The notes beneath the pieces were generated by a model. The model did not search any database. It saw only the letters and a list, made by a program, of their open reading frames with translations, and was not told where the DNA came from. Of a stretch of 64,000 bases of DNA, positions 26,833 through 45,227 are shown in pieces. Positions within the stretch are counted from its first letter, which is position 1. Every line of letters starts with the position of its first letter. This DNA is from an uncultured Acidobacteriota bacterium (GTDB lineage Bacteria > Acidobacteriota > Terriglobia > Terriglobales > Acidobacteriaceae): NCBI GenBank assembly GCA_963742165.1, contig CAVUKX010000017.1, forward strand, positions 110,698 through 174,697, in the 5' to 3' direction. The position numbers and the translations under genes are program-made.

Positions 26833-26876
26833 TGCAACTCCCAGAATGAAATTGGGCGCGAGCTGCAACGGAACTG

Positions 26877-26914
26877 CCCCACTCAAGCCAAAGGAAGGCT
26901 TGAATGGGCCACCC
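26877..26914. repeat. REP-like palindrome, family B, short form
   Basis: CCCCACTCAAGCC-AAAGGAA-GGCTTGAATGGG-CCACCC. Confidence 0.8.
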
Positions 26915-28482: not shown

Positions 28483-28517
28483 CCGGCAAACTTTCTGCGG
28501 CGATGAAGACGGACAGA

Positions 28518-28598
28518 TGGTAACGCTTCGCTGCCAGCCGCGGAAGCCAGACTGCTGCGTGCCGGACGGGTAACGCTGCGCTGCCGGCCGCGGGCGCA
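28518..28598. repeat. Two copies of the GGGTAACGCTGCGCTGCCGGCCGCGG repeat family (intergenic)
   Basis: 28518..28543 TGGTAACGCTTCGCTGCCAGCCGCGG. 28568..28598 GGGTAACGCTGCGCTGCCGGCCGCGGGCGCA, whose exact reverse complement lies at 39742..39772. Confidence 0.85.
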
Positions 28599-28621
28599 CG
28601 GCGCTTTGCTATGATTCCTGT

Positions 28622-29281
28622 GTGCACACGCCGGCAAAGCGCGGACGCTTTATCACCTTCGAGGGACTGGACGGCTGCGGCAAAAGCACCCACCTGGGCA
28701 GGCTGGCCACCGCTCTGAGCGCGCAAGGCATCGAGGTGATCTCCACGCGCGAGCCGGGAGGCAGCCCGATCGGGGAGCGCATCCGCGGCCTGCTGCTGGA
28801 TTCGCGTACGCTTGGACTGGCTCCGCTGGCCGAGCTGGCGCTGATGTTTGCCTCGCGCGCGCAGCATATCTCCGAGGTGATTCTTCCGGCCATCGAACGC
28901 GGCGCCTGGGTGCTGTGCGACCGCTACACGGATTCGTCCGAGGCCTACCAGGGAGCGGGGCGCGATCTGGGAGTGGACACCGTGCTGACGCTGCACCGCC
29001 TGCTCTGCAACGGGCTGCAACCGGACCTGACGATTCTGCTGGACAACGAAGTGGCCGACAGCGTGGCGCGCGCCCGGCGACGCAACGCCGCCGGAAGCGG
29101 AATCGACGAAAACCGCTTCGAGCAGGAAAACCGCGCCTTCTTCGATCGCGTGCACCGGCAGTTTTTGGCCATCGCGCAGCGCGAGCCACAGCGCGTGGTG
29201 ACCATCGACGCGCGAAAGGCCAAGGATGCGGTGCACCGCGACGTGGTGTCCGCGGTACGCGGGCGGCTGCTGGCGGAGTAG
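28622..29281 (+). CDS. tmk: Thymidylate kinase
   Basis: GTG start. RFITFEGLDGCGKSTH (P-loop), TREPGGSPIGERIR, DRYTDSSEAYQG. Confidence 0.9.
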   Translation: MHTPAKRGRFITFEGLDGCGKSTHLGRLATALSAQGIEVISTREPGGSPIGERIRGLLLDSRTLGLAPLAELALMFASRAQHISEVILPAIERGAWVLCDRYTDSSEAYQGAGRDLGVDTVLTLHRLLCNGLQPDLTILLDNEVADSVARARRRNAAGSGIDENRFEQENRAFFDRVHRQFLAIAQREPQRVVTIDARKAKDAVHRDVVSAVRGRLLAE

Positions 29282-29382
29282 AAGCGGGCGAACGCAGGGG
29301 CAGGGCTAGACCGGTTGAAAAGGCCGGGTGCCCCAGGCGACACGAGCCAAGACGAGAGCACGAGCAACGTCAAGGACAACTG

Positions 29383-29420
29383 CCCCACTCAAGCCAACGA
29401 AGGGCTTGAATGGGCCACCC
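29383..29420. repeat. REP-like palindrome, family B, short form
   Basis: CCCCACTCAAGCC-AACGAAG-GGCTTGAATGGG-CCACCC. Shares the AACTG prefix with the 26877 copy. Confidence 0.8.
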
Positions 29421-29439
29421 GGCGGGTTGGAGTTAGGCG

Positions 29440-30535
29440 ATGGGATTCGATCATTTCCGCGGCAATGGCGCCACCGTGGCACGGCTGCGGCAGATGATTG
29501 CACGCGACCATTTGCCGCACGCCATCATCCTGACCGGGGCGCGCGGAGCGGGAAAGTTTACCCTGGCGCAGATGGTGGCCAAGGCGGTGAACTGCCTGGA
29601 GCGTCCGGTGGACGAAGACGGACTTCCAGACTTTTGTGGGCGGTGCCGCAACTGCGAGCGCATTGGCCAGGCCGACGCGCTGGAGCAGCGCTTTGCCGAA
29701 GCAGTGGAGGCGCGCGAGGCGATGCGCGAGGGCAGATAAGCGCGATACCCGCATCTTTGTGCAGACCCATCCCGAGGTGCTGATCATTCCGCCCGACCCG
29801 CCGCAGATGCTGGTGAAGGTGGACCAGGTGCGGCATGTGATCGGCGAGATGTATTACCGTCCGGCGGAAGGACGGCAGAAGTTTTATATTTTTTCGGAAT
29901 CGAATTTCATGAAAGAGGCGGCCAACGCGCTGCTGAAAGTGTTGGAGGAGCCGCCCGACTTCGCCACGCTGTTCCTGCTGGCGGAAAACGCCAATTCCCT
30001 GCTGCCCACCATCCGCTCGCGCTGCATTACGCTGCGGCTGGCGCCGCTGACGGCCGCCGAGATTGCGCAGGACCTGGCGCTGCGCACCGAGTGGACGGCG
30101 GCGCAGAAGAAGCTGGTAGCCCAGCTGAGCGCCGGAGCGGTGGGACGGGCGCGCGGCTTCGACCTGAACGGATACCTGGCGGCGCGCAAGGACGCGCTGC
30201 TGCTGCTGACCACGGCGCTGGGCGAAAACGACCACTCGGCGCTGTTCCGCGCCACGGAGGCCTACCGCGCCGGGGGCGAGGGCAAGGCCAAGACCGACCA
30301 GTTGATCGCCGTGCTTTATTCGATTCTGGAGGACCTGATGTTTCTGAAATCGGGGTCGGCCGAGTTGATGCGAAATCAGGATCTGCAGGCCGAGTTGGAG
30401 TCCATTGCCGCGCAGGTTTCGTTTGGCTGGATTGTGCGCGCCAGCGACGGGCTGGGCGAGGTGCAGAACGGAATGCGGCGCAATCTGCTGCGCTCGCTCT
30501 CCCTGGATGGATACTCCAGCGCGCTGGAAGTGTAG
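29440..30535 (+). pseudogene. holB: DNA polymerase III delta-prime subunit, frame broken by a 1-nt insertion (probably an assembly error)
   Basis: ORF 29440..29739 (LPHAIILTGARGAGKFTLA, CGRCRNCERI) stops at TAA 29737. ORF 29636..30535 continues as ADKRDTRIFVQTHPEVLII...KVLEEPP...RSRC. Deleting one G from GGG 29730..29732 gives a continuous ...EAMREADKRDTRI... Confidence 0.85.
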
Positions 30536-30666
30536 CGTTACCCGCCGAGCGTCGGCGACCGGCAGCGGCGTTCGTTGCCGCGTTACCCGCCGAGCGTCGG
30601 CGACCGGCAGCGGCGTTCGTTGCCGCGTTACCCGCGAGCGTCGGCGGCCGGCAGCGCAGCGTTTCC
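30535..30666. repeat. 45-bp tandem repeat, 2 exact units plus 1 degenerate, same family as 28518..28598 but opposite orientation
   Basis: GCGTTACCCGCCGAGCGTCGGCGACCGGCAGCGGCGTTCGTTGCC at 30535..30579 is repeated exactly at 30580..30624. The third copy ends ..GGCCGGCAGCGCAGCGTTTCCC. The array begins on the last base of the holB stop codon. Confidence 0.9.
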
Positions 30667-30894
30667 CGCATACGATCTACGCCGCCGGACACGGCCTGCG
30701 GTGCCGCGATGACTAAGGCATTTGTTGTTTTTCGCCCTGCGCGTGTGTTAAGTTTTAACCACGAACCACTGCATCCTCTTTCAGGAAATCAGTTTCCGCA
30801 CCCTCTTTTGTGCGTGCGCGGCTGTGTCCTCAGCGGGGAATCGCGGGGAATTTTGACTGCAACTTTGGATACTCCCCTAGGGAGAGGACTCGTG

Positions 30895-31356
30895 ATGAGA
30901 AATGGACCTGACTCAACCGCCGTGGTGCGGGCACTCGAGCCAGACAACTTCGGGAACCGCAAACTGATCCGGCCTTCGCTGAATCGCGAGCAGGCTCGCG
31001 CCGCCGAAGCCGCCGTGGAGCCGCGCGAACGCGGCTTACGCAGCGCGGAGCGGAGTGCCGAGCGCGGCACCGAGCGCACTGTGGAACGCGCCCATAACCA
31101 TGAGCGCACACCGGGCAGCCCCAAAAAGTCCGCACCGGCCGAGCAGACGCACGCCGAAAATTTCTATTATCAGAAGCAGATCCAGGGCAAGACTCCGATG
31201 GTGGTAGTGACGCGCGACGGCGAGCAGTTGCGCGGCATCATCGAGTGGTATGACAAGAGCTGCATCAAGCTGAACCGGTCCGCGGGCCAATCCAACCTGC
31301 TGATTTATAAAACCGCCATCCGGTATATGTACAAGGAAGGCGAAGAGACGAAGTAG
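30895..31356 (+). CDS. Hfq/Sm-like RNA-binding protein with a long N-terminal Arg/Glu-rich extension
   Basis: Track ORF 30091..31356 trimmed to ATG 30895 (GAGAGGA upstream). The C-terminal 65 aa, ENFYYQKQIQGKTPMVVVTRDGEQLRGIIEWYDKSCIKLNRSAGQSNLLIYKTAIRYMY, fit Sm1 (V.V.L..G..L.G.I...D) and Sm2 (YKHAI-like IYKTAI). Confidence 0.6.
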   Translation: MRNGPDSTAVVRALEPDNFGNRKLIRPSLNREQARAAEAAVEPRERGLRSAERSAERGTERTVERAHNHERTPGSPKKSAPAEQTHAENFYYQKQIQGKTPMVVVTRDGEQLRGIIEWYDKSCIKLNRSAGQSNLLIYKTAIRYMYKEGEETK

Positions 31357-31403
31357 CGAAGCGGCACGGCCTATACGAAATCATTGTTGCAACGCCATCT
31401 TTG

Positions 31404-31430
31404 GAGCCCGCCTCGCGCGGGCTCTTTTAT
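31404..31430 (+). terminator. Rho-independent terminator after the Hfq-like gene
   Basis: GAGCCCGC-CTCGC-GCGGGCTC followed by TTTTATT. Overlaps the tsaC stop codon on the other strand. Confidence 0.7.
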
Positions 31431-32467
31431 TGGGAGGCTTTGCGCAGGCGGTCGCGGATCGCCATGCCGATTCCCTCGGGCGGGGGCAGCGGGCAGACGA
31501 TGACCTCGACGCCCTGTTCGTCGAGCGCGCGCAGCAGGGAGTACAGATCGCGGGCGAGCGACTGCGGCTCGCTCCAGCTTCCCCAGCGCAGCACCGTTAC
31601 GGCCACCAGCGGCACCCTCCACTCAAAGGGAAGCAGCACACCCACCGTGTTGTGGCGCGTCTCGCGCTTGAGCACCTGCATGAGATCGGATTCGCTGGAG
31701 ACCAGCACTAACCGGGCGCGCGGAGCGTAATGACGAATGCCGAAGCCGGGAGATTCGAGGGCCTCGCGCGGGACCTCGTCGGCCACGGTGCGCAGGGCCA
31801 TCTCGACGCTGCCCAGCACGAGTTTAAGCTGCTCGGCGGTGACACCCCCGGGCCGGTAGATGAGCGGCGGGGTCGCCGTCGGGTCCAGCACGGTGGACTC
31901 GACCCCTACGGCGCAGCCTCCGGCGTCGAGAACGGCGTCGATACGGCCGTCGAGGTCGGCCAGGACATGCTCGGCCGTGGTGGGGCTGGTGTGTCCGAAC
32001 AGGTTGGCACTGGGCGCGGCGATGGGCACTCCGGCGGCGGCGATGAGCGCCCGCGCCACGGGATGCGCGGGCAAGCGCAGCCCGACCTTGGGACGGCCGG
32101 CGGTGCACAGATCGGGAATCGCCGCGCTGCGCGGCAGCAGCATGGTAAGCGGGCCGGGCCAGAAAGCCTCCGCCAGGCGGGCGGCCGCATCCGTCCAATC
32201 CGAGGTCAGTTGGCGCGCCGAAGCCACATCGGCTACGTGAACGATCACCGGGTCCCAGTGGGGACGCTGCTTGGCGGCGAAGATCTTCTCCACCGCCGCG
32301 GCATCGAGCGCGTTGGCGCCGAGTCCGTAGACGGTTTCCGTGGGAAAGGCCACCAGTCCGCCGGCGCGCAGGATTTCAGCGGCCTGGAGCAGGGCTGGGT
32401 CGCGGGAAATGTCGCGAGCAATGTCGGGCTCCGACTCGGCGGCGATGCGCAGGCGAAGGGTTTCCAT
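31427..32467 (-). CDS. tsaC: L-threonylcarbamoyladenylate synthase (Sua5/TsaC, long form)
   Basis: GGLVAFPTETVYGLGANALDAAAVEKIFAAKQRP and ..APSANLFGHTSPTTAEHV, plus a Sua5-type C-terminal domain (346 aa). Confidence 0.85.
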   Translation of the reverse strand: METLRLRIAAESEPDIARDISRDPALLQAAEILRAGGLVAFPTETVYGLGANALDAAAVEKIFAAKQRPHWDPVIVHVADVASARQLTSDWTDAAARLAEAFWPGPLTMLLPRSAAIPDLCTAGRPKVGLRLPAHPVARALIAAAGVPIAAPSANLFGHTSPTTAEHVLADLDGRIDAVLDAGGCAVGVESTVLDPTATPPLIYRPGGVTAEQLKLVLGSVEMALRTVADEVPREALESPGFGIRHYAPRARLVLVSSESDLMQVLKRETRHNTVGVLLPFEWRVPLVAVTVLRWGSWSEPQSLARDLYSLLRALDEQGVEVIVCPLPPPEGIGMAIRDRLRKASQ

Positions 32468-32473
32468 GGGCGC

Positions 32474-33028
32474 CTATAGTTTGGGCAGCACGATACCGGC
32501 CTGGTTCTGGTATTTGCCGGCCTTGTCCTTGTAGCTCACTTCGCAGGGCTCGTCTCCCTGGAAAAACAGGATTTGGCAGAGTCCCTCGTTGGCATAAATT
32601 TTGGCGGGCAGCGGAGTGCTGTTGCTGATCTCCAGGGTGACAAAGCCCTCCCACTCTGGCTCGAACGGAGTGACGTTGACGATAATGCCGCAGCGCGCGT
32701 AGGTGGACTTGCCGACACAGATGGTGAGCACGTCGCGCGGGATCTTGAAGTACTCGACCGAGCGGGCCAGGGCGAAGGAGTTGGGCGGGACCATGATGCT
32801 GTCGGCGCGGATGGAGACGAAGGAGCGCTCGTCGAACTTTTTGGGGTCCACGATGGCCGAGTTTACGTTGGTGAAAATTTTGAACTCGTCGGCCACCCGC
32901 AGATCATAGCCGTAGGACGAAAGTCCGTAGCTGATGACGCCTTCGCGCATCTGCTTTTCGCAGAACGGGTCGATCATCTGCTGCGTCTGCGCCATCTCGC
33001 GAATCCAGCGGTCACTCTTTATCGCCAT
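32474..33028 (-). CDS. dcd: dCTP deaminase
   Basis: Trimmed to ATG 33028 (AAGGAG upstream): [13 protein letters not shown]...SYGYDLR...[30 protein letters not shown]. Confidence 0.9.
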
Positions 33029-33202
33029 TTTGGTTCCGACTCCTTGTGTGCTGTCAACGTGTAGGGCCATCTTAACATTCAGGATTCCCGGCGGCGAGGA
33101 CGTGCTACCATCTCGGCATCGCAGGTTGACATTGCCTGCTCCATTTTCTAGCATCATTGGGCAAGTTCTTGATTCTCAATCCGAAGCGCCGGAGCCGATC
33201 GC

Positions 33203-33472
33203 TTGATCAAACTCGACATTATCAACGAAGTGGTAAACCGCACCGGGGTCACCAAGACCAAGGCCGAGCGCGCCGTGGAGACCGTATTTGAGAGCATGAA
33301 GAACGCGCTGGCCGCAGGCGACCGGATCGAGTTGCGCGGCTTTGGCGTCTTCAACGTGCGCCCGCGCAAGACCGGCATCGGCCGCAACCCGCGCACCGGA
33401 GCCGAAGTCAACATTCCGCCGGGCAAGGCCGTCCGCTTCAAGCCGGGCAAGGAACTGCAATCGATCGATTAG
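33203..33472 (+). CDS. HU/IHF-family DNA-binding protein (IHF-like)
   Basis: TTG start: MIKLDIINEVVNRTGVTKTKAERAVETVFESMKNALAAGDRIELRGFGVFNVRPRKTGIGRNPRTGAEVNIPPGKAVRFKPGKEL. Confidence 0.85.
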   Translation: MIKLDIINEVVNRTGVTKTKAERAVETVFESMKNALAAGDRIELRGFGVFNVRPRKTGIGRNPRTGAEVNIPPGKAVRFKPGKELQSID

Positions 33473-33538
33473 TCCAGCGGCGGCATGCGGTTGCGCCGCT
33501 GCCGCCTGTGTGTCCGAACGAGCGCGAGCGTCTGCCCG

Positions 33539-34576
33539 ATGTCTGATTCCGTCCCCAATTCCCTGCCCGGAAACCCTGTGGTGTACGTGCGGCTCTCCGA
33601 TCCGGCATGTTCGCTCCCGATATACGCGCCCAAAGTCCGCTACGGAGTGCCGCTGCTGTTGCTGGCGGTCACCTTCTGCACCACGGTGCTGGTGGGCTCG
33701 CGGCTGCAGTTCAACTTCGATCATCATCTGGATGCCTTCGCCACCGGCAATGAACTGCTGCCGCTGTTTCCAGTGCAGTGGCTGTGGCAGAACCCGCGCC
33801 AGTTGCTGCTGGGCGTGCCATTCTCGCTGGCCATCATGAGCATTCTGCTGGCGCATGAGATGGGACACTACCTCTATTGCCGCCACTATCGAGTGCGCGC
33901 CACCCTGCCGTTCTTTATCCCTGCGCCTACGCTGATCGGCACGCTGGGCGCGTTCATCCGCATCGGCGGGCGGATTGAATCGCGCGCGGCGCTGTTTGAT
34001 ATCGGCATCGCCGGGCCGATTGCGGGATTTGTGGTGGCCGTGCCTACCATGCTCGCGGGACTAGCCTTGTCGCATCCCGTAGCCGGCTTCCCCGATCCCG
34101 ACCTGCAGTTCGGCTTCCCGTTGATCTTCCAGCTCGGCCATCTCCTATTGCACCGCGTATTTTCGCACCAGGGAGGGCCTTCGCTGGTGCACTACTATCT
34201 GCATCCGGTGGCCATTGCGGGCTGGGCCGGAATGCTGGCCACGGCGCTGAATCTGCTGCCCGGCGGACAACTGGATGGCGGGCATCTGGTGTTTGCCGTC
34301 TCGCCGCGGATGCACCGCTTTTTCTCCTGGGCGATGGTCGGCTCGCTGGTGGTGATGGCCTGGTTCTTCTGGGTGGGATGGATGGCTTGGGCGATTCTGC
34401 TGGCGCTGAGCGGACTGCAGCAGCCGAGCGTTCCGCAGCGGCCCGGCGTGGGACGCGGTCGCAAACGTCTCTCCCTGGTGGCGATAGCGATGCTGATTCT
34501 CACCTTTACCCCCGCACCGGTAGCCAACTCCAGCTTCCCCCAAGTGGCTCATATGATCAAGTACGGCAGCCGGTAG
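33539..34576 (+). CDS. M50 site-2-protease-family membrane metalloprotease
   Basis: Trimmed to ATG 33539. Multi-TM protein with HEMGHYLYCRHY (HExxH) and a later NLLPGGQLDGGH motif. Confidence 0.8.
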   Translation: MSDSVPNSLPGNPVVYVRLSDPACSLPIYAPKVRYGVPLLLLAVTFCTTVLVGSRLQFNFDHHLDAFATGNELLPLFPVQWLWQNPRQLLLGVPFSLAIMSILLAHEMGHYLYCRHYRVRATLPFFIPAPTLIGTLGAFIRIGGRIESRAALFDIGIAGPIAGFVVAVPTMLAGLALSHPVAGFPDPDLQFGFPLIFQLGHLLLHRVFSHQGGPSLVHYYLHPVAIAGWAGMLATALNLLPGGQLDGGHLVFAVSPRMHRFFSWAMVGSLVVMAWFFWVGWMAWAILLALSGLQQPSVPQRPGVGRGRKRLSLVAIAMLILTFTPAPVANSSFPQVAHMIKYGSR

Positions 34577-34610
34577 CGGAGTCTGCGCAAGACGCCTGCA
34601 AGGAGCACGC

Positions 34611-35459: not shown

Positions 35460-35463
35460 GCCG

Positions 35464-35898: not shown

Positions 35899-35923
35899 GC
35901 GGGCGGGTCACGATCGGTGACTA

Positions 35924-36458: not shown

Positions 36459-36523
36459 GGCAAACCTCCGGGGGAGTCCGATTCCTATTGTAGTCACAAT
36501 GGCACTACATGGCAACCTGCAAT

Positions 36524-39115
36524 CTACGAGAGCGACATCGCGTCCACGTCCACGATGATATGGGTGCGCGGAATCTTCTGCTGCCCGGCGGCGGCGAGCA
36601 TGGTGCGGAGCACGGAGTTCAGGCGCTCGCGGCTGGCGGCCTTGAGCACAAAATGGAAGCGGTAATCTTTCTTGAGGCGCACGATGGGCGCGGGCGCGGG
36701 GCCCATGACGCGCACGCCCTCGTGGCGCACCTGCTCAAACCATCGGCCCAGCAGGCCAGCGTAGCGCAGGGCTTCTTCCTGCTTGTCGCTGCGCACCACG
36801 ATGTTGGCCAGCGCATCGAAGGGCGGATAGTGCATCCAGCCGCGGAAGCGCAGCTCCTTTTCGGCAAAGCCCTGATAGTCGTGGGCGGCGGCAAATTGTA
36901 CGGCGTAGTGGTCCGGGAAATGGGTCTGCAGTAAAACCTTGCCCAGCATCTCGCCGCGTCCGGCGCGGCCCGCCACCTGCGTTAACAGTTGGAAGGTGCG
37001 CTCGGCGGCGCGAAAGTCCGGCAGGCCGAGGGCGCTGTCGGCGCCGACCACGCCCACCAGCGTGACGCCGTGCACGTCGTGTCCTTTGGCGATCATCTGG
37101 GTTCCGATGAGCAGGTCGATTTCGCCGGACTGGAACTCGCTCAACATGCGCTCGAAGTCGGCGTGGCCGCGCACGGTGTCGCGATCCATGCGTCCGATGC
37201 GCGCGGTGGGAAAGGCGGCGTGCAAAAGGTCTTCGAGCTTTTCCGAGCCGGTGCCGAGGAACTGCACGTACTCGCTGCCGCACTTGGGGCAAGTCTTGGG
37301 CACCGGCTGCTGGAATCCGCAATAGTGGCAGAGCAGGCGCTGCCGGCTTTTGTGATAGGTCATGGCCACGGCGCAGTCGCGGCACTGCACGGTATCGCCG
37401 CAGCTGCGGCACATGACCCAGGCCGAGTAGCCGCGGCGGTTGAGCAGGATCATGGCCTGCTCGCCGCGCTCCAGGCGCTCTGCGGTTTCTTCCATCAGCT
37501 TGCGGGAGAGCACGCTCTCCTTGCCGGTCTGCTGGAACTCGGCGCGCATGTCCACCAGTTCGACCTCGGGCAGGGGACGCTCCGCAACGCGTCCGGGCAG
37601 TTCGATGAGCGCGTAGCGACCGCGCGTAGCGTTGTGGAAGCTCTCCAGCGAGGGCGTGGCCGAGCCCAGCACCACCGTGGCGTTCAGGGCCTTGGCCCGC
37701 ATCACGGCAACATCGCGTCCGTGATAGCGCGGCGTCTCCTCCTGTTTGTAACTGTTGTCGTGCTCCTCGTCGACGATGATGAGCGCGAGGTCGCGCACCG
37801 GGGCGAAGATTGCGGAACGCGTGCCGACGGCGATGCGCGCTTCGCCGCGACGGATGCGGTGCCACTGCTCGGCACGTTCGTCGTCGCTGAGCGAGCTGTG
37901 CAGAATGGCGATCTCATCGCCGAAGATGTTGTGCAGGTCGGCGGCGACGCCGGGGGTGAGTCCGATCTCCGGGACCAGAAGAATGGAGCCGCGCCCCGCG
38001 GCGAGCACCGACTGCATGGCCGCAAGATACACCGCCGTTTTGCCGGAGCCGGTGACGCCGTGCAGCAGCGCCACCTTGAAAGTGTGCGCCTCAACGCTGC
38101 CGCGAATCTCGCGCAAGGCGGATTGCTGGCCGGGGGTGAACTGGAACTCCAGGATGGTGCGCGGCTTCATCTGGGGCACGGCGCGTGCGGCGGACTCCTC
38201 GACGATCTCCACCAGCTCGTGGCGCACCAAAGTTTTTAAAGAGCTTGGCGAACAGCCAGCTTCGCGCAGTTCCTCCAGCGGCAGGCGGCCCTGCGATTGG
38301 CGGAGGAGATCCACGATGCGCTGCTGCGCGGCATTCAGTTTGTGACCAGCGCCTGCGGCCGGCCCTGCGCCGCCGGCTGGCAGCGGAGCGTTACCCGTCT
38401 GGCCATCGCATAACTCATCGCGTAGCGCTTCTCGCAACACTTCGCGCAGCACCACGATCTTGGCCAGTCTTCGCGCGTCGCGCACGCCGGAGAGGTCTTC
38501 GCGGACAATCCATTTTTTTTGCAGCAGCGTGCGCAGCACCTCGCGCGAGGCGCCGGTCGCGGTGCGCAGGCGCTCTTCGCGCAGCAGGTCGCCCTCGGCC
38601 AGTGCGTCCAGCACGGCGTATTCGCTCATCTGGTGGTCGGGATTTTTTTGGGAGCGGCGGGAGGAGCCGATGTCGGCGGACTGGTAGAGCGCCTCGGTGC
38701 CCAGCTCGGTGATGCGGTAGCCGAAGGCCTGGCGGAACTCGGCCTGCAAGGGCAACATGCTGCGATAGACTTCGCCCAGCGGCGCCAGATAGTACTGCGC
38801 GATCCAGCGGCCAAGGGCGAGCAGGCTTTCGTCCAGAACAGGGAGCGTGTCGAGCACCTGCAGCACGCGCTTAATGTTGCGCGTGGCGGGAGGCTCGCGA
38901 TGGATGCGGGTGACGATGCCGGAGAGTTTTTTCTCCGCGCCACGGCCAAAGGGAACGACCACACGCCCGCCTACGACGGGTTCAAGTTCGCCGGCTTCGT
39001 AGGTGAAGATTGCGTCGAGTGGCACCGGCAACGCAACGTCGCAAAAAATGCGGGAATCGGGAACAACAGATTCGGGCAGCAGCGAGCCTTGCTGGGGCTC
39101 GGGTGGGGTGTCCAT
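36524..39115 (-). CDS. priA: Primosomal protein N' (replication restart helicase PriA)
   Basis: Trimmed to ATG 39115 (TGATG overlap with the udg stop). LLHGVTGSGKTAVYL, IIVDEEHD, Cys-rich Zn region CRSCGDTVQCRDCAVAMTYH...LLCHYCG..CPKCGS, GTQMIAKGHD, QVAGRAGR. Confidence 0.9.
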   Translation of the reverse strand: MDTPPEPQQGSLLPESVVPDSRIFCDVALPVPLDAIFTYEAGELEPVVGGRVVVPFGRGAEKKLSGIVTRIHREPPATRNIKRVLQVLDTLPVLDESLLALGRWIAQYYLAPLGEVYRSMLPLQAEFRQAFGYRITELGTEALYQSADIGSSRRSQKNPDHQMSEYAVLDALAEGDLLREERLRTATGASREVLRTLLQKKWIVREDLSGVRDARRLAKIVVLREVLREALRDELCDGQTGNAPLPAGGAGPAAGAGHKLNAAQQRIVDLLRQSQGRLPLEELREAGCSPSSLKTLVRHELVEIVEESAARAVPQMKPRTILEFQFTPGQQSALREIRGSVEAHTFKVALLHGVTGSGKTAVYLAAMQSVLAAGRGSILLVPEIGLTPGVAADLHNIFGDEIAILHSSLSDDERAEQWHRIRRGEARIAVGTRSAIFAPVRDLALIIVDEEHDNSYKQEETPRYHGRDVAVMRAKALNATVVLGSATPSLESFHNATRGRYALIELPGRVAERPLPEVELVDMRAEFQQTGKESVLSRKLMEETAERLERGEQAMILLNRRGYSAWVMCRSCGDTVQCRDCAVAMTYHKSRQRLLCHYCGFQQPVPKTCPKCGSEYVQFLGTGSEKLEDLLHAAFPTARIGRMDRDTVRGHADFERMLSEFQSGEIDLLIGTQMIAKGHDVHGVTLVGVVGADSALGLPDFRAAERTFQLLTQVAGRAGRGEMLGKVLLQTHFPDHYAVQFAAAHDYQGFAEKELRFRGWMHYPPFDALANIVVRSDKQEEALRYAGLLGRWFEQVRHEGVRVMGPAPAPIVRLKKDYRFHFVLKAASRERLNSVLRTMLAAAGQQKIPRTHIIVDVDAMSLS
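38365..38397. repeat. Copy of the GGGTAACGC..GCTGCC repeat family inside priA
   Basis: CTGCGCCGCCGGCTGGCAGCGGAGCGTTACCCG. By hand alignment, 29 of 33 nt are identical to the udg copy. Translated as ..TGNAPLPAGGAG.. Confidence 0.75.
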
Positions 39116-39978
39116 CAGGCCTCGGGATTGCGCTTGGGCAGCGGCATTCCCAGGTACTTCATCACGATCTGCAGGTCGAGCCACGTTTCTTTCTTCTGGC
39201 GCGGATCGCGCAGCAGGTAGGCGGGATGGTAGGTGACGACCAGTTTGGTGGCAAAGTCCGGGTCGCGCTCCGGCGCCTCTGGCGGCAACATGGCGTGGCG
39301 CGCGGGTTGGAAGTCGTAGACGTGTCCACGCAGGTTCGCCATCGAGTCGTTGGCGGAGAGAAGAAACTTGGCCGCCGTGGCGCCCAGCGCCACGATGATC
39401 TCCGGACGCACCGCCAGAATCTGGCGCATGAGGTAGGGGCCGCAGGTCGCGCACTCATCGGGCTCCGGAGCGCGATTTTTCGGCGGGCGGCACTTGACCA
39501 CGTTGCCGATGTAGACGTCCTCGCGCCGGATTCCCATTGCCTGAATCATGTTGTTGAGCAGTTGTCCGGCGCGTCCCACAAAGGGCTCGCCCTGCTCGTC
39601 TTCATCCGCGCCCGGGCCCTCGCCGACAAAGAAGATGCGTGCGTGCGGATCGCCCACGCCAAAGACAATGTTGGTTCGCTCCTGGCACAGCTTGCAGCGG
39701 GTGCAGTCGCCAATGTCTTCGCGGATCACGCGGAGAGCCTCTGCGCCCGCGGCCGGCAGCGCAGCGTTACCCGACACAGCGCCCGCAGGCGCAGAGGCGT
39801 ACCCGTCAGCAACCGTGGGCTCCTCGATACTCGCCAGTTCTTCGCGCACGATGGTCTGCCCAAAGCTCACGCCTTCGGGCACCTCGCGGCGGTAGAGATC
39901 GTAGATGCCGAGGTCGCGATAGTAGCGCACGGTGGCAGCGACGGCCTTCCTGCTTTGCTCGTCCAGAATTTTTGCCAT
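39115..39978 (-). CDS. Uracil-DNA glycosylase, family 4 (Fe-S type)
   Basis: [53 protein letters not shown]...[12 protein letters not shown]. Confidence 0.85.
39742..39772. repeat. Exact 31-nt copy (reverse complement of 28568..28598) inside the udg coding sequence
   Basis: TGCGCCCGCGGCCGGCAGCGCAGCGTTACCC, translated on the minus strand as [10 protein letters not shown] within the N-terminal extension of UDG. Confidence 0.9.
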
Positions 39979-39980
39979 GG

Positions 39981-41216
39981 TTATGCGGGCACCTTGGGAG
40001 TCTTCTGCTTCGTCCGCATTTTCACGATCTCGTCGAGCACCCGGCCGGCCATCTCCGCCTTGCTCATCTCGGCGATCACCGTGGTCGCATCGGCGGTAAT
40101 GATTTCGCCCGCGTTGCGCTCGGAGCCGAAGCCGAGGCCGGGGCGCGAGACATCGTTGAGCACGATGGCGTCCAGCTGTTTGCGCTCCAGTTTGCGGCGC
40201 GCGTTCTCAGTGAGGTTCTCTGTCTCGGCGGCAAAGCCGATAAGAAGCTGGCCCGGCGCGCGGCGCGAACTCAACTCGGCGAGGATGTCTTCAGTGGGGC
40301 GAAGGGAAAGGTTCATTTCACCTTTGCGCTTGATCTTTTGCTCAGCGACTTCGGCGGGAGTGAAGTCGGAAACCGCCGCCGCCATGATGGTGATGCTGGC
40401 GCGTCCGAAGCGCTCCAGCAGAGCCTGGCGCATCTGCGCGCAGCTCTCGACGGAGACAAACTCCTCGACCGCGGGAGCCGCGAGCGCGGTCGGCCCGCTG
40501 ACCAGCGTGACCTGCGCTCCGCGCCGCAGTGCGGCCTCGGCGAGGGCATAGCCCATCTTGCCGCTGGAGCGGTTGCCGAGGAAGCGCACCGGGTCGATGG
40601 CTTCATAGGTGGGGCCGGCGGAGATCAGAATGTGCTCGCCCTTGAGGTCCTGCGATTGGGCGTCCTGTGATTGCAGCAGGCGCGCCGCGAGCGCTTCGAC
40701 GATTACGTCCGTGTCCGCCAGGCGGCCTTCGCCGGTCATGCCGCAGGCTAAATAACCTTCGCCGGGCTCGACCACGGTGACGCCGCGGGCGCGCAGGGTT
40801 TCGAGATTGGCCTGCGTGGCCGGGTGACGCCACATGTTGACGTTCATCGCGGGAGCAACGACAACCGGGGCCAGGGTGGCGAGGTAGAGCGTGGAGAGAA
40901 AATCTTCGGCCAGGCCGTGGGCAAAGCGCGACAGGGTTGCCGCCGTCGCGGGCGCCACCAGGAGGGCGTCAATGGACTGCGCCACGCCGATGTGCTCCAC
41001 CGAGGAGTCGAGGGTGGAGTTGGAGTCGCGCTGGGAGAACATTTCGGTGATGACCTTTTCGCCGGTGAGGGCGGCAAAGGTGAGCGGGCGGACGAACTCC
41101 TGCGCGGAGGCGGTCATGACGACCTGCACGGTGAAGCCGCGCTCCTGCAGGCGGCGCGCGATGTCGGCGGCCTTGTATGCGGCGATGCCGCCTGTGACTC
41201 CCAGTGCGATTTTCAT
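39981..41216 (-). CDS. coaBC: Bifunctional phosphopantothenoylcysteine decarboxylase / phosphopantothenate-cysteine ligase
   Basis: Trimmed to ATG 41216: MKIALGVTGGIAAYKAADIARRL..., PAMNVNMW, ISAGPTYEAIDPVRFLGNRSSGKMG. Confidence 0.9.
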   Translation of the reverse strand: MKIALGVTGGIAAYKAADIARRLQERGFTVQVVMTASAQEFVRPLTFAALTGEKVITEMFSQRDSNSTLDSSVEHIGVAQSIDALLVAPATAATLSRFAHGLAEDFLSTLYLATLAPVVVAPAMNVNMWRHPATQANLETLRARGVTVVEPGEGYLACGMTGEGRLADTDVIVEALAARLLQSQDAQSQDLKGEHILISAGPTYEAIDPVRFLGNRSSGKMGYALAEAALRRGAQVTLVSGPTALAAPAVEEFVSVESCAQMRQALLERFGRASITIMAAAVSDFTPAEVAEQKIKRKGEMNLSLRPTEDILAELSSRRAPGQLLIGFAAETENLTENARRKLERKQLDAIVLNDVSRPGLGFGSERNAGEIITADATTVIAEMSKAEMAGRVLDEIVKMRTKQKTPKVPA

Positions 41217-41328
41217 GATTCGTGTCTTCAGATGGCCCAGTTTGAGGAAGCCCTGTCTCCGATGGATTCGATGCGCGCGCACGCAGCTTCGATTGCGTTG
41301 GAAGCTCCAGCGCTTTGCGCCTCCACTT

Positions 41329-41410
41329 CCCCACTCAAGCCAAAAGATGGCTTCCACCCCAGCAAGCCAACTACGCGCTTGCTGGGGACCCCGGCTTGAA
41401 TGGGCCACCC
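41329..41410. repeat. REP-like palindrome, family B, long (compound) form
   Basis: Near-identical to 23196..23277, differing at a few bases by eye. Lies between rpoZ and coaBC. Confidence 0.8.
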
Positions 41411-41478
41411 GTCGGATTGCTTCCCACCTTAGCCGCGCAAAAGCAGCGCGTCGAAGGTGGGGCACCCGTCGTCAGCTT

Positions 41479-41697
41479 TTAGGCTGCGCCGGTCTTGGAA
41501 TCCAGCGGCTCGACCAGCCGCAGGGGCGTGGTTTCCCACTTTACCTTGTCGGCCTGCAGCTCTTCGGCGGCGATGCGGCAGGGCTTGGTGGAAGCCGTGG
41601 CGACCAGTGGGAGTGCGCCGGACTGCAACTGACGCGCGCGGCGCGCGGCTACTAAAATGTACCGGTAATTGCTGTCGAACCCGCTGTAGAGATCCAC
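41479..41697 (-). CDS. rpoZ: DNA-directed RNA polymerase omega subunit
   Basis: NYRYILVAARRARQLQSG motif; 72 aa; canonical gmk-rpoZ adjacency. Confidence 0.85.
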   Translation of the reverse strand: MDLYSGFDSNYRYILVAARRARQLQSGALPLVATASTKPCRIAAEELQADKVKWETTPLRLVEPLDSKTGAA

Positions 41698-41719
41698 GTT
41701 CGTACCTCCAGTGAATTAC

Positions 41720-42409
41720 TCAGTTCTTGCGAAAGCTTTCCAGAATGGGCCCAAGACCTGGCCGCACGTGTTCCAGCCTGCGGCTCTCCGCCAGTTCGAC
41801 GAGCTTCTGTTCGTCGGCCCGCTCCGGCTCCCTGCCGGCGGCGCGGAGCCGCTCGGTGAGGATGATCGCCTTCAGCGAGTCGATCGAATCGTCTAATTGG
41901 TCGTTTACCAGAATGTAATCGTATTCCGTATATTTTTCAATCTCCCGCTTGGCGGTATCCAGGCGACGCAGGAGTTTGGCCTCGTCGGTCATGCGTTCAG
42001 CGGCGCTGCGGCGGCGCAGACGTTTCTCCAACTCCTGCTTGGTGGGAGGCAGAATGAAGATGCTGATCGCCTCCGGAATGCTGGCCTGCAGCTGCGAGGC
42101 GCCTTGCACGTCGATATCCAGCAGCAGGTCGTTGCCGCGCACGATGGCATCATCCAGAAACTTCTTGGCCGTGCCGTAGTAGTCGCCGAAGACGTCGGCG
42201 TATTCGAGGAATTCGCCGCGGGCGATCATGCGCTCGAAGACCTCGCGCCGGGTGTAGTAGTAGTCGCGGCCGTCTTCCTCGCTGCCGCGCGGCGGGCGGG
42301 TGGTGTAGGAAACGGAGAATTCGAGCCGGTCCACCAGCCGCTTGATGGCCGTAACCAACGTCGATTTACCGCTGCCCGAGGGCGCTGAGATGATGAAGAC
42401 GAGAGTCAT
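41720..42409 (-). CDS. gmk: Guanylate kinase
   Basis: IISAPSGSGKSTLV, SYTTRPPRGSEEDGRDYYY, FLEYADVFGDYYGT. Confidence 0.9.
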   Translation of the reverse strand: MTLVFIISAPSGSGKSTLVTAIKRLVDRLEFSVSYTTRPPRGSEEDGRDYYYTRREVFERMIARGEFLEYADVFGDYYGTAKKFLDDAIVRGNDLLLDIDVQGASQLQASIPEAISIFILPPTKQELEKRLRRRSAAERMTDEAKLLRRLDTAKREIEKYTEYDYILVNDQLDDSIDSLKAIILTERLRAAGREPERADEQKLVELAESRRLEHVRPGLGPILESFRKN

Positions 42410-43293
42410 TCGACGTTTTGCACCTGTTCGCGGGATTTTTCAATGTCGCTTTTCAGTGCCAGGCCCAGCTCGGTGATGCGCATGGCGTCGCCGGCAAGGC
42501 CGCTGGTTTTGGAGAGCATGGTGTTGGCCTCGCGGTTCATCTCCTGGAGCAGGAAATCGAGTTTCTTGCCGACATCTTCGCCCTCTTCCAGCAGGCTGCG
42601 GAAGTGGCGAATGTGGGTCATCATGCGCACGATCTCCTCCTGCACGTCGCTGCGCTCGGCCAGCATCGCCGCCTCCTGCAGAATGCGGTCGGGCTCGGCC
42701 TTGCCTTCGAGCAGCTCCGCCATGCGCGCGCGGATGCGCTCCAGGTGGGCGGCCAGCACGGTGCCCCGGAGCTTTTCCACCTCGGCGGTGTTGCGCTCCA
42801 GCTGATCCATGCGCGCCTCAAGCTCGGCGCAGGTGTGGTCGCCTTCCAGACGCCGGTTGACGTTGAGCAAGTCGATCAGCTCGGCAGCGGCAGACGCCAG
42901 CGACTCCTGCAACTCGGCCTCGTCCGGCATTTCGCTGGAGGCCAGAAATACGCCGCTGAGGCGGAAGATGGCATTCAGGTCGGGCTCGCCGTGCAGGTCG
43001 AGATCGCCGGAGAGCGCGCGGAAGGCCTTGACGTAGCCGGAAACCAGTTCCTGATTGATGCTGAGCCCGGTGGCTCCCGCGTACTCCAGGCTCAGGGAGA
43101 CTTCCACGTGGCCGCGGTGCATTTTCTCCTTGAAGAGCTTGCGCAGCCGCTGCTCGAAGAGCTCCGATCTTCCCGGCAGGCGCAGATGCAGGTCCAGGAA
43201 GCGATGGTTCACCGACTTGGCGGTGAAGGTGTAGCCGGTTTTTCCGTGCTGGCCCTTGAGTTGGGCAAAGCCGGTCATGGAGCGAATCGCCAT
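42406..43293 (-). CDS. yicC: YicC/YloC-family stress-induced protein (endoribonuclease)
   Basis: MAIRSMTGFA...SVNHRFLDLHLRLP... and C-terminal ..EMNREANTMLSK..., ..REQVQNVE. Confidence 0.85.
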   Translation of the reverse strand: MAIRSMTGFAQLKGQHGKTGYTFTAKSVNHRFLDLHLRLPGRSELFEQRLRKLFKEKMHRGHVEVSLSLEYAGATGLSINQELVSGYVKAFRALSGDLDLHGEPDLNAIFRLSGVFLASSEMPDEAELQESLASAAAELIDLLNVNRRLEGDHTCAELEARMDQLERNTAEVEKLRGTVLAAHLERIRARMAELLEGKAEPDRILQEAAMLAERSDVQEEIVRMMTHIRHFRSLLEEGEDVGKKLDFLLQEMNREANTMLSKTSGLAGDAMRITELGLALKSDIEKSREQVQNVE

Positions 43294-43295
43294 AG

Positions 43296-45227
43296 TTATA
43301 CTCCGCTTCCTTCCTCGTGGGTGACGGGCTGCTGGGTCGCATCCACGTCCACAAACTGCAGCTCATAGAGACGGCGATAGGTGCCCAGCCGCGACAGCAG
43401 ATCCTCGTGCGTACCCTGGTCGGCGATGGCGCCATGTTCCAGCACAAGAATGCGGTCGGCGCGGCGCACGGTGGAGAGGCGGTGGGCGATGACGAAGACG
43501 GTGCGGCCGGTCATCAGGTTCTGCAGCGCGGCCTGCACCAGTGCTTCGCTTTCGGAATCGAGCGCCGAGGTGGCTTCGTCCAGGATCAGAATCGGCGCGT
43601 TTTTGAGCAGGGCGCGGGCGATGCTGAGGCGCTGGCGCTCGCCGCCGGAGAGGCGGAAGCCGCGCTCGCCGACCACCGTGTCATAACCCTGGGGCATCCG
43701 CCGGATGAAATCGTGGGCCAGCGCCGCCTGGGCCGCGCGCTCCACGTCCTGTTGCGAGACGTTGGGCTGGCCGTAGGCGATGTTGTTGCGCACCGTGTCG
43801 TTGAACAGCATGGTCTCCTGCGCCACGATGCCGATCTGGCTGCGCAGCGAGGCCAGAGAGAGATCGCGAATGTCGATGCCGTCTACCAGGATGCGTCCGC
43901 CGGTGACGTCGAAAAAGCGCGGAATCAGGTGCACCATGGTGGACTTGCCCGCGCCGCTGCCGCCGACGATTGCCAACAGTTCGCCGGCCTTCACCTCGAG
44001 GTCGATGCCCTTGAGCACTTCGCGCGTGTCGGCCTGTGCGCCCGCGGCCGGAGCGGCAGCAGTAGCCGCGTACCCGACTGTGCCCGCGACTGGCGCGGCC
44101 GGAGCTACGCCGCCGTAGGAGAAGCGCACGTTCTCGAAGCGAATGGAGTCGTGGAAGGCGCCGAGCTTCTGCGGATGTTCCTTCTCGCGCACCTCGTCCT
44201 TGGCGTCCATGAATTTGAAGACCTGCTCGGAGGCCCCCAAGGCCTGCTGGAAGCTGTTGTAGAAGCCGGCAAACTTACGCACCGGCTGATAGAGACTCAT
44301 GGTGGCAACGATGAAGGTCATGAAGTCGCCCATGGTCATCTGGCCGTGGTTGATGCTGTCGCGTCCCAGCTTGAGCAGCAGGGCGATGGCCACCGCGCCG
44401 AGCAGGTCCATGAGCGGAGAGCTGACCGCCATGGCCACCACGTAGTGCATGTTGGCCGAGAACAGGCGCTTGGCCGCCGCCTTGAAGCGCGTGGTCTCCC
44501 AGAGCTCCATGCTGAAGGCCTTGACGATGCGATGGCCGGTGATGGTTTCGTGCAGGATGTTCTGGATCTCGGCCAGCTTGTCTTGCCCGCGACGCGTGGT
44601 GCCGCGCACCTGGCGTCCGATTTTGCGCGAGCTGACCATGATGACCGGCACGAACATCAGCAGAATCCACGCCAGCTTGCCTCCGGCTTCGACGACCAGC
44701 GCGGCGGTGAACAGGAAGATGAAGAACTGCTGCAGGAACTCCGCCAGCACGCTCGACATGGCGAACTGCACCTTGTCGATGTCGTTGATAATGGCCGAGA
44801 CCAGCGTGCCGGTGGGATGCTTCTGGAAGAAGGCGGCGGAGCGGCGCAGCACGCTGCCGTAAATCTCATTGCGCAGATCGGTGACCAGCCCGAAGCCGGC
44901 GTAGTTCACCAGGTAGGTGCCGCAATAGTCGAAGATTCCCTTAAGGAAGACCGAGGCGACCAGCGCAAAGGCCACCACGGTCCACGGATTGTGGAAGTGG
45001 TGGGGGACGAGATTTTCCAGATAGATGGTGTAGTTGGTGTGGGGGATCCGGATGAGCGCCATCGAGCGCCCCGGCACCTCCGGCGTCAGCACGCGGTCGA
45101 AGATGGGACGGAACAGAGCCAGGCGGAAGGCTTCCAGAATGCCGACCAGCGAAAACAGCACCACGCTGCCAAATAGCTGGAGCCAGTAGGGCCGGACATA
45201 CCACATCAGACGAATCAGTCGGCGCAT
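43296..45227 (-). CDS. ABC exporter, fused permease/ATPase (MsbA-like lipid exporter)
   Basis: Six-TM N-terminal half, then an NBD: GGSGAGKST, LSGGERQRLSIARAL, ILILDEATSALD, IAHRLST. Carries about 25 extra residues (VAPAAPVAGTVGYAATAAAPAAGAQ) between the F.Y strand and Walker A. Confidence 0.85.
   Translation of the reverse strand: MRRLIRLMWYVRPYWLQLFGSVVLFSLVGILEAFRLALFRPIFDRVLTPEVPGRSMALIRIPHTNYTIYLENLVPHHFHNPWTVVAFALVASVFLKGIFDYCGTYLVNYAGFGLVTDLRNEIYGSVLRRSAAFFQKHPTGTLVSAIINDIDKVQFAMSSVLAEFLQQFFIFLFTAALVVEAGGKLAWILLMFVPVIMVSSRKIGRQVRGTTRRGQDKLAEIQNILHETITGHRIVKAFSMELWETTRFKAAAKRLFSANMHYVVAMAVSSPLMDLLGAVAIALLLKLGRDSINHGQMTMGDFMTFIVATMSLYQPVRKFAGFYNSFQQALGASEQVFKFMDAKDEVREKEHPQKLGAFHDSIRFENVRFSYGGVAPAAPVAGTVGYAATAAAPAAGAQADTREVLKGIDLEVKAGELLAIVGGSGAGKSTMVHLIPRFFDVTGGRILVDGIDIRDLSLASLRSQIGIVAQETMLFNDTVRNNIAYGQPNVSQQDVERAAQAALAHDFIRRMPQGYDTVVGERGFRLSGGERQRLSIARALLKNAPILILDEATSALDSESEALVQAALQNLMTGRTVFVIAHRLSTVRRADRILVLEHGAIADQGTHEDLLSRLGTYRRLYELQFVDVDATQQPVTHEEGSGV
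44037..44078. repeat. Expanded/degenerate copy of the GGGTAACGC..GCTGCC repeat family inside the msbA-like NBD
   Basis: TGCGCCCGCGGCCGG (15 nt identical to the udg copy) ...GCCGCGTACCCGAC. Read in the same frame as GYAATAAAPAAGA. Confidence 0.65.

Follow-up and report, generated by a model that had tools for sequence, protein, structure and literature searches.

A short GC-rich repeat in intergenic DNA and, in frame, within core-enzyme genes of uncultured Terriglobales

Rickettsia palindromic elements (RPEs), as described by Ogata et al. (2000, 2002) and relayed in PMC10969869, are palindromes of ~100–150 bp that lie in frame within housekeeping genes of reduced, AT-rich intracellular genomes. 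Here, we analyse a 64,000-nt stretch of DNA from an uncultured Acidobacteriota bacterium (GenBank assembly GCA_963742165.1, contig CAVUKX010000017.1, positions 110,698–174,697; hereafter, the window), in which a preliminary description had pointed out a short GC-rich repeat located between genes and, in one reading frame, inside the genes of a family-4 uracil-DNA glycosylase (UDG), PriA and an MsbA-like ABC exporter. As far as the relayed account of the RPEs goes, the likeness is that of short selfish repeats found both in intergenic DNA and in frame in unrelated housekeeping genes, tolerated at the surface and adding a conserved peptide; on the same footing, our element differs in being 37–55 nt long, GC rich and resident in free-living soil bacteria, in having a non-palindromic common form, and in forming head-to-tail arrays within genes. 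There is no sequence relation between the two, judging from the RPE descriptions and from Rfam, which gave no match at the gathering threshold in the window and nothing notable at E ≤ 1 around the intergenic copies. In-frame insertion of the RPE type was found at 33 coding sites, with hosts confirmed by Pfam, a fold-compatible position in the MsbA-like protein, where the insert is modelled as a disordered loop, and indels in multiples of three in the better-aligned coding comparisons. The analogy drawn in the preliminary description thus holds for the behaviour of the element (in frame and tolerated in loops) but not for its structure: as the common short form is non-palindromic, the analogy is functional.

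Intragenic repetitive extragenic palindromic (REP) sequences encoding 20–80 residues have been described in Opitutus, Thauera and Rickettsia, together with GTAG- and CGTC-tagged families, and for Acidobacteria, the same survey lists only Y1 transposases flanked by terminal inverted repeats and no REPs, K. versatilis being among the carriers of Y1 transposases (Di Nocera et al. 2013, PMC3733652). Our element resembles REPs and REPINs in its similar size (20–40 nt), its copy number of tens to hundreds, the lack of terminal inverted repeats and target duplications, and the presence of intragenic copies; a possible further likeness is that its long form is an imperfect palindrome with an unpaired GTAC and that GACG, the reverse complement of CGTC, precedes ~30% of the short-form copies. 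It differs in that the short form is unfolded, the copies stand head to tail rather than in inverted pairs, the intergenic copies are mostly in tandem or divergent spacers, and no RAYT gene flanks the copies in 84 genome and at least 120 metagenome loci. Mycobacterial interspersed repetitive units (MIRUs) are said to be direct tandem repeats at ~40 loci, essentially intergenic and often at operon junctions, with open reading frames (ORFs) overlapping the stop and start codons of their neighbours. Our repeat is likewise dispersed in head-to-tail units of tens of bases, with a copy number that differs between relatives and with junction copies that preserve an ORF (locus L013 and the fmt/rsmB junction; Lnnn denotes numbered loci that carry the repeat or are syntenic or related to such loci), but it also lies deep inside the coding sequences of enzymes and has no sequence relation to MIRUs. 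The BIMEs of enterobacteria are mosaics of REP and non-REP motifs; the likeness here is a joining in fixed order and orientation to an abundant hairpin repeat, whereas most copies of our element are solitary, and BIMEs have partner motifs of a different, unrelated kind. Finally, the uptake sequences DUS of Neisseria and USS of Pasteurellaceae occur about once per kb, mostly singly or as inverted pairs. Our element shares with them lineage specificity with dialects, conservation at orthologous sites and a restriction to tolerated frames inside genes, but it is 10 to 100 times rarer and three times longer, forms tandem arrays and turns over quickly.

Two further classes were considered and rejected: a MITE is ruled out by the lack of terminal inverted repeats and of a target-site duplication of fixed length, and a CRISPR array by units that either abut directly or have copies of one flanking sequence, and not unique spacers, between them. 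In the searchable literature, no match was found to the DNA core of the repeat, its reverse complement or its peptide, and the general topic returned only reviews of REPs, MITEs and RPEs. Judged by its sequence, the repeat is a previously undescribed, atypical REP/MIRU/RPE-like family. We think it likely that the copies form a family of short interspersed, tandem-prone repeats of an uncultured, Korobacteraceae-like clade of Terriglobales and that they are selfish or neutral DNA.

The repeat, its distribution and its reading frames

The short form of the repeat, aligned over 84 distinct copies, has the consensus G-N-C-G-GGTAACGCT-N-CGCTGCC-G-GCCGC-N-GGCGC-N-N-G-G of ~37 nt and is a unit of two boxes, a 5′ H box (CGGGTAACGCTNCGCTGCC) and a 3′ S box (GGCCGCNGGCGCNNGG). 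Among the positions that our search patterns left free, +8 (T, 0.96), +25 (G, 0.96) and −1 (G, 0.99) are nearly fixed; positions +9, +23, +29, +30 and −3 vary freely. Conservation ends sharply, with none outside −4 to +33, and at the 5′ edge, the fixed letters of G-N-C-G have frequencies of 0.76, 0.82 and 0.99. Copies are either solitary or arranged head to tail with periods of 33–50 nt (33–72 nt at the widest); arrays of two to five units were found at 23 of 96 sites and an inverted pair at only one (L075, 7564/7624). The units may abut directly, as in the five units of L012 with a 35-nt period, or else are interleaved with repeated copies of a flank (L013 and L056), and at four independent sites, the element is repeated together with ~35 nt of its flank. 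The S box can also multiply alone, with a 15-nt period (L065 and L072).

The exact repeat from which the preliminary description had started, the 31-mer GGGTAACGCTGCGCTGCCGGCCGCGGGCGCA, has just two perfect matches in the window, at 28568–28598 (+) and 39742–39772 (−), with no further match at up to three mismatches and none in 100 dinucleotide-preserving shuffles. The identity extends to 32 nt (28567–28598 on the plus and 39742–39773 on the minus strand), the intergenic copy being the reverse complement of the one in the UDG gene, and two looser cores gave six window matches against 0.35 expected and eight against 0.29. The variants that had been proposed are all present (28519–28543, 38365–38397 and 44034–44078): the copy in priA is identical to that of the UDG gene at 29 of 33 nt (88%), and the one in the MsbA-like gene shares its initial 15 nt with the 31-mer copy and has the 3′ end GTACCCGAC. 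Three head-to-tail copies had been reported at 30535–30666; there, Tandem Repeats Finder (TRF) delimits an array at 30535–30656 with a period of 45, 2.7 copies and 97% matches, and an adjoining short-form copy extends it to 30668. Translation confirmed that the copies in the UDG, priA and MsbA-like genes are read in the frame of the gene, giving GNAPLPAGGA in PriA and GYAATAAAPAAGA in the MsbA-like protein. With five repeat sites within 16 kb, the window is locally dense.

One could argue that there is no element at all, and that ancestral low-complexity linkers of Ala, Gly and Pro have come to look alike through GC-rich codons or that the copies are assembly artefacts. The composition is indeed GC rich (0.60–0.65), and the UDG linker is old, variable and rich in Ala and Pro in all orthologues. 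Such an explanation is scarcely credible given the 32-nt exact identity between intergenic and coding DNA, where shuffled sequences lead one to expect 0–0.35 matches, the occurrence of one and the same 37-nt sequence outside coding DNA and, within it, on either strand, the absence of the insert from most MsbA orthologues, and the recurrence of the repeat in independent assemblies from many projects.

The search for the motif beyond the window, which the preliminary description had proposed, revealed a dispersed, lineage-restricted family. Scanning one genome per prokaryotic species with the pattern GGTAACGCNNCGCTGCCNGCCG produced at least 102 stretches, ~80 of which come from at least 16 species of metagenome-assembled genomes (MAGs) labelled Acidobacteriota, Acidobacteriaceae or Candidatus Korobacteraceae (Terriglobales); the other taxa among the matches listed are represented by single chance matches without the 3′ half of the element. 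On this sequence evidence, the repeat is a dispersed family restricted, among the matches listed, to one acidobacterial lineage. Strict copies among those matches number at least 4–9 per contig of 0.4–2.2 Mb, or about one per 100–250 kb; diverged copies add about one site per ~40 kb in the loci, and the total per genome, diverged copies included, is probably tens to ~100. Two contigs with the repeat carry other labels, L084 (DATLJC010000044.1, a Saccharimonadales MAG) and L077 (CAVTDT010000002.1, an Alphaproteobacteria MAG). Both are 87–94% identical over kilobases to Acidobacteriota loci (the TopA region and the L032/L035 region), and given this identity and the repeat, they are probably mis-binned.

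The coding status of the copies was assessed with a codon log-odds score trained on the loci themselves, which classified 51 of 138 profile matches as coding and 87 as non-coding or undecided; a more permissive gene call, made in addition, found 61 of ~98 copies to lie inside genes, and the share of copies within genes is put at 37–58%. Collapsing orthologues leaves 33 distinct coding sites, distributed over the frames as F0 16, R2 14, R0 2, R1 1, F1 0 and F2 0, so that two frames of six hold 30 of the 33 (chi-square p = 1.3e-9); of the frames never used, F1 is rich in Arg and Cys and F2 contains TAA. The frame bias that had been anticipated is thus real, but an orientation bias is not: the near-equal use of F0 and R2, which read opposite strands of the element, indicates that it has no fixed relation to the direction of transcription, and the intergenic copies show no bias relative to their neighbouring genes either (10 in the same and 7 in the opposite orientation). 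Tandem or divergent spacers, rather than convergent ones, hold most of the intergenic copies.

The hosts confirmed by Pfam are YbeY, an agmatine-deiminase-like enzyme, topoisomerase I (TopA), the NAD-ligase LigA, RecJ, aconitase, a XerC/D-type recombinase, squalene/phytoene synthase, an E2 acyltransferase, a DinG-like helicase, TatD, ABC ATPases, arginyl-tRNA synthetase (ArgRS; two sites), the leucyl aminopeptidase M17 (up to four units) and UvrD. In aconitase, the element sits just before AYPDTLVGTDSHT in three species, with two units in one of them, and in L040, it is found in a paralogous ABC ATPase, in the loop that also contains it in the MsbA-like gene of the window. Two junction sites were observed besides: at 1330–1850 of L013, each of five units comprises a ribosome-binding site, an ATG and a 24-codon ORF ending in an ATGA that overlaps the next start, and at the fmt/rsmB junction of three species (L048 430–545, L034 2720–3010 and L042 120–420), the element is flanked on either side by a copy of the region of the fmt stop and rsmB start.

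A longer form of ~55 nt has the structure GCTTCGCAGCC-GGGTAC-GCGGC-(5–10 nt, mostly 7)-GCCGC-TCCGGCCGCGGGCGC-TCGG. Its pattern matched 17 times, 14 times in the genome loci and three times in the window, among copies not selected for the long form, and a metagenome scan added at least 137 further copies with 79 different loops between the fixed arms. The long form carries the apical hairpin GCGGC-loop-GCCGC, and the 5′ arm is present in only about half of the copies. The long form can fold as an imperfect palindrome, with 86% of cells paired compared with 30–67% when the partner is slid, and its GTAC remains unpaired inside the stem, not at the end. Covariation was found neither for the basal stem (129 copies) nor for the apical stem, whose arms are invariant and hence can demonstrate none. 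The long-form copies are mostly intergenic (77%), and their frame bias is weaker than that of the short form. As far as sequence comparison can tell, the short form resembles a long form that lacks the apical hairpin and the 5′ arm. Within the window, the long form is represented by the 45-nt tandem, the MsbA copy and a degenerate unit beside the UDG copy (Table 1); in frame, these window units encode GYAATDAAPAAGA-like peptides, and similar peptides are found again in UDG and MsbA orthologues. The genes concerned were confirmed by Pfam: tmk (28622–29281), holB (29636–30535), priA, the UDG-family gene (39115–39978) and the ABC exporter (43296–45227).

Table 1. Units of the repeat in the 64,000-nt window
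Feature	Position	Strand	Context and support
Partial short-form copy with intact H box and diverged S box	28519..28547	+	Intergenic, upstream of tmk; nhmmer 28519–28543, E 7e-6; 17-mer core with 0 mismatches
Full consensus short-form copy	28565..28601	+	21 nt upstream of tmk start (GTG at 28622); nhmmer E 2e-10
Terminal partial unit	30529..30546	-	Overlaps holB stop codon (TAG 30533–30535); nhmmer match
Two 45-nt long-form units, CGGGTAACGC-GGC-AACGAAC-GCC-GCTGCCGGTCGCCGACGCTCGG	30545..30634	-	TRF; long-form pattern match
Short-form copy closing the array, GGGAAACGC variant	30636..30668	-	nhmmer E 5e-6
PriA copy, H box and two S boxes, encodes TGNAPLPAGGAGPAAGAG	38346..38399	-	nhmmer 38363–38399, E 1e-6; extra S box 38346–38363
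UDG copy, consensus short form	39739..39775	-	Linker before UDG core; nhmmer E 1e-10
Older, degenerate long-form-like copy beside UDG copy	39776..39807	-	From sequence
MsbA-like copy, long form GGGTACGCGGC-TACTGCT-GCCGCTCCGGCCGCGGGCGC, encodes GYAATAAAPAAGAQ	44034..44078	-	Long-form pattern match
Second, degenerate unit of MsbA-like insert, encodes GGVAPAAPVAGTV	44079..44117	-	From sequence; part of ~25-residue insert

Turnover at orthologous sites and the fit within proteins

Relatives that are ~72–96% identical in aligned syntenic blocks made it possible to follow individual sites. Four loci are syntenic with the window (L023, L096, L022 and L009, with 77–91% identity across the aligned blocks), and many of the repeat loci are also syntenic with one another. 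After the holB stop, the number of units ranges from none in L096 (a clean empty site) through one in L023 to 3.x in the window; here, 5 of 33 positions differ between the window copy at 30636–30668 and its L023 orthologue. The two units that precede tmk in the window are matched by a single truncated unit in L096 and by no unit in L023. Among the coding sites, RecJ has a 45-nt in-frame insert in L009 that is absent from the window, and filled and empty alleles are paired in ArgRS (+42), LigA (+33), TatD (+33), the M17 peptidase (+135; zero against four units) and aconitase (+30 and +66; one against two units between relatives). In the better-aligned coding comparisons, indel lengths are divisible by three, in contrast to the intergenic indels of 89, 37, 44, 67 and 62 nt. 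In PriA, five relatives display stages of change: the copy is intact in L229 and differs by one substitution in L228, the window carries an extra S box, L022 retains a remnant reading AQSALQP, and L230 is left with a solo S box. We had taken the L022 gene for a simple absence of the copy, a reading that was replaced by that of a decayed remnant once more relatives were aligned. The presence/absence polymorphism that the preliminary description had suggested looking for is thus found at PriA, MsbA, RecJ, ArgRS, LigA, aconitase and several intergenic sites.

The three protein sites of the window differ in how they accommodate the element. The preliminary description had assumed only a short linker at each of them. 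For the MsbA-like protein, this is correct: ~50 of 73 aligned orthologues have a short loop of the form Y-x-DGEDAREVL, the insert of the window is common only to proteins at least 92% identical, and a few other lineages have unrelated inserts in the same loop. With most orthologues lacking it, the insert is derived, and the scenario that would have undone the proposal, an ancestral loop encoded by unrelated DNA, fails for this gene. An AlphaFold2 model of the protein (58 homologues, mean pLDDT 68) assigns the insert, residues 373–400, a pLDDT of 29–40 and no secondary structure, and the strands on its sides (361–371 and 402–413) have 10-residue blocks averaging 78–88; the insert is thus modelled as a disordered loop. 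For UDG, the assumed short linker does not hold. All orthologues have a variable, Ala/Pro-rich linker of 40–60 residues, and the element lies inside it, ahead of the Pfam core that begins at residue 106; according to these alignments, the UDG copy is in an old, pre-existing linker and does not replace a short one. The peptide SGNAALPAA is confined to the closest 13 of 16 UDG proteins at least 81% identical, and the orthologue in L227 has, beside the copy, a nearly intact long form, GGG TAC GCG GCA ACC GAC GCC GCC TCC GCA GGC. The PriA copy is placed between the 3′-DNA-binding/winged-helix part and the helicase core. Together, the frame bias, lineage restriction, site polymorphism and loop location support the original idea of a coding-tolerant mobile or expanding repeat.

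Possible modes of spread

Comparison of orthologous alleles shows copies appearing at new, unlinked loci, arrays growing and shrinking, and copies decaying. We suspect that arrays change in size by slippage or unequal exchange between S boxes, which would generate H-S-S-S arrays or a solo S box; the latter is an expected product of such a process, and the PriA gene of L230 fits. Selection would then keep coding copies only if the indel is a multiple of three, only in the two frames that give small neutral residues, and only at loop or linker sites, and survival limited to such copies would explain how essential enzymes can be the carriers. New loci, in turn, may be seeded most plausibly by in-trans copying by a sequence-specific enzyme, the best candidate for which would be a single-strand HUH/Y1 transposase (RAYT- or TIRYT-like), since the insertions of this enzyme class lack both terminal inverted repeats and target duplications. 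Speaking for an enzyme acting in trans are the position-specific conservation with free positions in between, the subfamilies of H-box variants, the lack of inverted repeats and duplications, and the Y1 transposases reported from Acidobacteria by Di Nocera et al. (PMC3733652).

The ends of the element, G-N-C-G-GGTAAC and GGCGC-NN-GG, are not mutually inverted and thus form no terminal inverted repeats. A regular target-site duplication is likewise missing: duplication of the flank exceeds the control in 5–12% of 94 sites, with variable length, and the filled and empty allele pairs have neither a constant duplication nor a constant insert length. A long target-site duplication had at one point looked like a hallmark, as suggested by U-R-U cases with a period of ~71 nt (L056, L013, L030 and L048/34/42), but it failed across the 94 sites; with so few sites above the control, the U-R-U cases amount to local duplications that arise now and then rather than to a signature of insertion. 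The H-box variants are lineage specific and common to all units of an array, which points to subfamilies. Genome-specific subfamilies at the variable positions were considered as well, and the signal was weak (p = 0.005 at +9) and largely driven by arrays.

Several observations weigh against selfish or neutral DNA seeded by such an enzyme. The short form would lack the hairpin that HUH transposases normally recognise: five copies and one reverse complement fold no better than shuffled single-stranded DNA (z from −0.26 to +1.77). No linked transposase or recurrent non-syntenic gene was found beside the copies by ORF clustering in the 84 genome and at least 120 metagenome loci, apart from ABC ATPases, response regulators and similar. 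The boundaries of the inserts are inconstant (33, 36, 37, 42, 44 and 45 nt), often with partial neighbouring units, and fit recombination or template switching better than precise transposition. An S-like sequence is already present at several empty sites, for example, GCCGCGGGCGCGG in ArgRS and GACGCGGGCGCA in LigA. Lastly, on the sequence evidence given below, a purely neutral insert would not behave as the H box does.

The empty sites and inconstant boundaries raise the alternative of a spread without any enzyme, in which, during replication or repair, a newly synthesised strand with a native S-like sequence at its end pairs wrongly with an S box in an array elsewhere, copies one or more H-S units and returns. 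The native seeds would be Ala-Ala-Gly-Ala codons, GCC GCN GGC GCN, and the arrays would later change by the same slippage. The S-like sequence is located exactly at the junction of the empty alleles of ArgRS, LigA, RecJ and L015/L036, and the inserts are whole periods with S on both sides (S-H-S); the arrays of S boxes alone in L065 and L072, the solo S box left after loss in the PriA of L230, the variable insert lengths and the lack of a transposase near the clustered loci are all as one would expect. On the other hand, the empty alleles at MsbA (loop DGEDAREVL), TatD, the site after holB and L096/L023 have no S-like sequence, an S-like remnant could equally be the product of a deletion between two S boxes, and the sharp conservation of the H box and its lineage-specific variants are easier to understand with recognition by a protein. 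Overall, we regard the enzyme-free route as rather unlikely.

The H box itself is conserved in an unexpected manner. Seven UDG orthologues have the same DNA sequence over its 21 nt, with none of the seven third positions changed, whereas in the rest of the gene, the third base is kept in only 49% of the codons with an invariant amino acid (P ~0.007). The linker codons just upstream of the H box cannot be aligned, and the S box varies. Three TopA orthologues have the same H-box invariance, and two of these copies were not selected by a pattern. As counterexamples, the PriA copies and the copy after holB have diverged, and taken together, these patterns could come from copies of different ages, ectopic gene conversion or a role at the DNA level.

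The last of these leads to the idea that the element, or its H box, is a DNA signal maintained by the host or by molecular drive, such as a sequence of the DNA-uptake type or a site bound by a protein of the nucleoid or of recombination, the copies inside genes being tolerated placements. Apart from the invariance in UDG and TopA next to a varying linker and S box, this would agree with a constraint that is position specific and leaves single positions free to vary, with lineage-specific variants resembling the dialects of uptake sequences, and with the frame bias inside genes, which is typical of uptake sequences too. We nevertheless find it very unlikely, for the density of both strict and diverged copies is low, head-to-tail arrays of up to five units and partial units are unexpected of a signal, copies are freely gained and lost between close relatives and have decayed in the PriA of L022 and in the window copy at 30636 relative to L023, and neither coding nor intergenic copies have an orientation bias.

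The two alternatives may also be combined, with the H box kept identical by ectopic gene conversion or by uptake or binding drive, and a transposase-free spread primed on Ala-Ala-Gly-Ala codons. We consider this combination quite unlikely; if true, the element would propagate itself while generating low-complexity loops in essential proteins, and bacterial repeats would have a new way of spreading.

Neighbouring features and significance

The genomes contain a second, far more abundant hairpin repeat, CCCCAC-stem-loop-stem-GTGGG(C/G)CACCC, which looks like the true REP of these genomes. In the window, it is found at 20293–20339, 23196–23282, 26872–26918, 29378–29424, 41329–41415 and 41417–41477, and 117 of its tail motifs were counted in 674 kb of related loci. 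Its stems vary in a compensatory manner, the variants being CTCAAGCC/GGCTTGAA and ATTCGCC/GGCGGAT. At 7 of 94 sites, against 0.4 expected, the hairpin repeat (CCCAC-stem-loop-stem-GTGGGCCACCC) stands directly upstream of the short form, in fixed order and orientation. Both repeats also border a 1.8-kb segment at 26843–28609: a hairpin-repeat copy marks one boundary, and the two short-form elements mark the opposite one. This segment contains an ORF at 27160–28482 for a FliB-like flagellin lysine-N-methylase (NCBIfam NF038110, E 8e-76; no Pfam match) and is missing at this position in the syntenic L023 and L096, which have ~0.5 kb of other sequence instead.

Elsewhere in the window, the ~6.6 kb at 49108–55730 have a GC content of 0.54–0.59 compared with ~0.62 and are absent from the syntenic L009; they are flanked by a direct repeat of ~76 nt (49032–49107 and 55731–55806), contain a 90-nt tandem repeat (54652–54831), and by these features look like an integrated island with att-like ends. 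Tandemly repeated paralogous ORFs of ~200 residues, with DNA matches of ~155 nt at 75–77% identity, occur at 62147–62783 of the window, 5800–8000 of L076 and 730–3000 of L092.

Returning to the short repeat, which is probably selfish or neutral DNA, four traits stand out: it has colonised a wide range of core enzymes, a strict filter leaves it two frames, it grows head to tail inside genes, and its dominant form lacks a palindrome. The difference in copy number between close relatives gives the repeat potential as a marker for strain typing. For the annotation and phylogenomics of MAGs, it calls for caution, with orthologues of variable length, misaligned loops, and assemblies that break or collapse at the arrays. 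The family also provides a natural experiment on the loops of core enzymes, among them PriA, TopA, LigA, RecJ, UvrD, ArgRS, aconitase and ABC ATPases, that tolerate 11–45 extra residues, and a concrete source for the Ala/Gly/Pro-rich linkers common in GC-rich proteomes. The RPE-like colonisation of essential genes, usually seen as a curiosity of Rickettsia, takes place on a similar scale in free-living, GC-rich, uncultured Acidobacteriota of soil.

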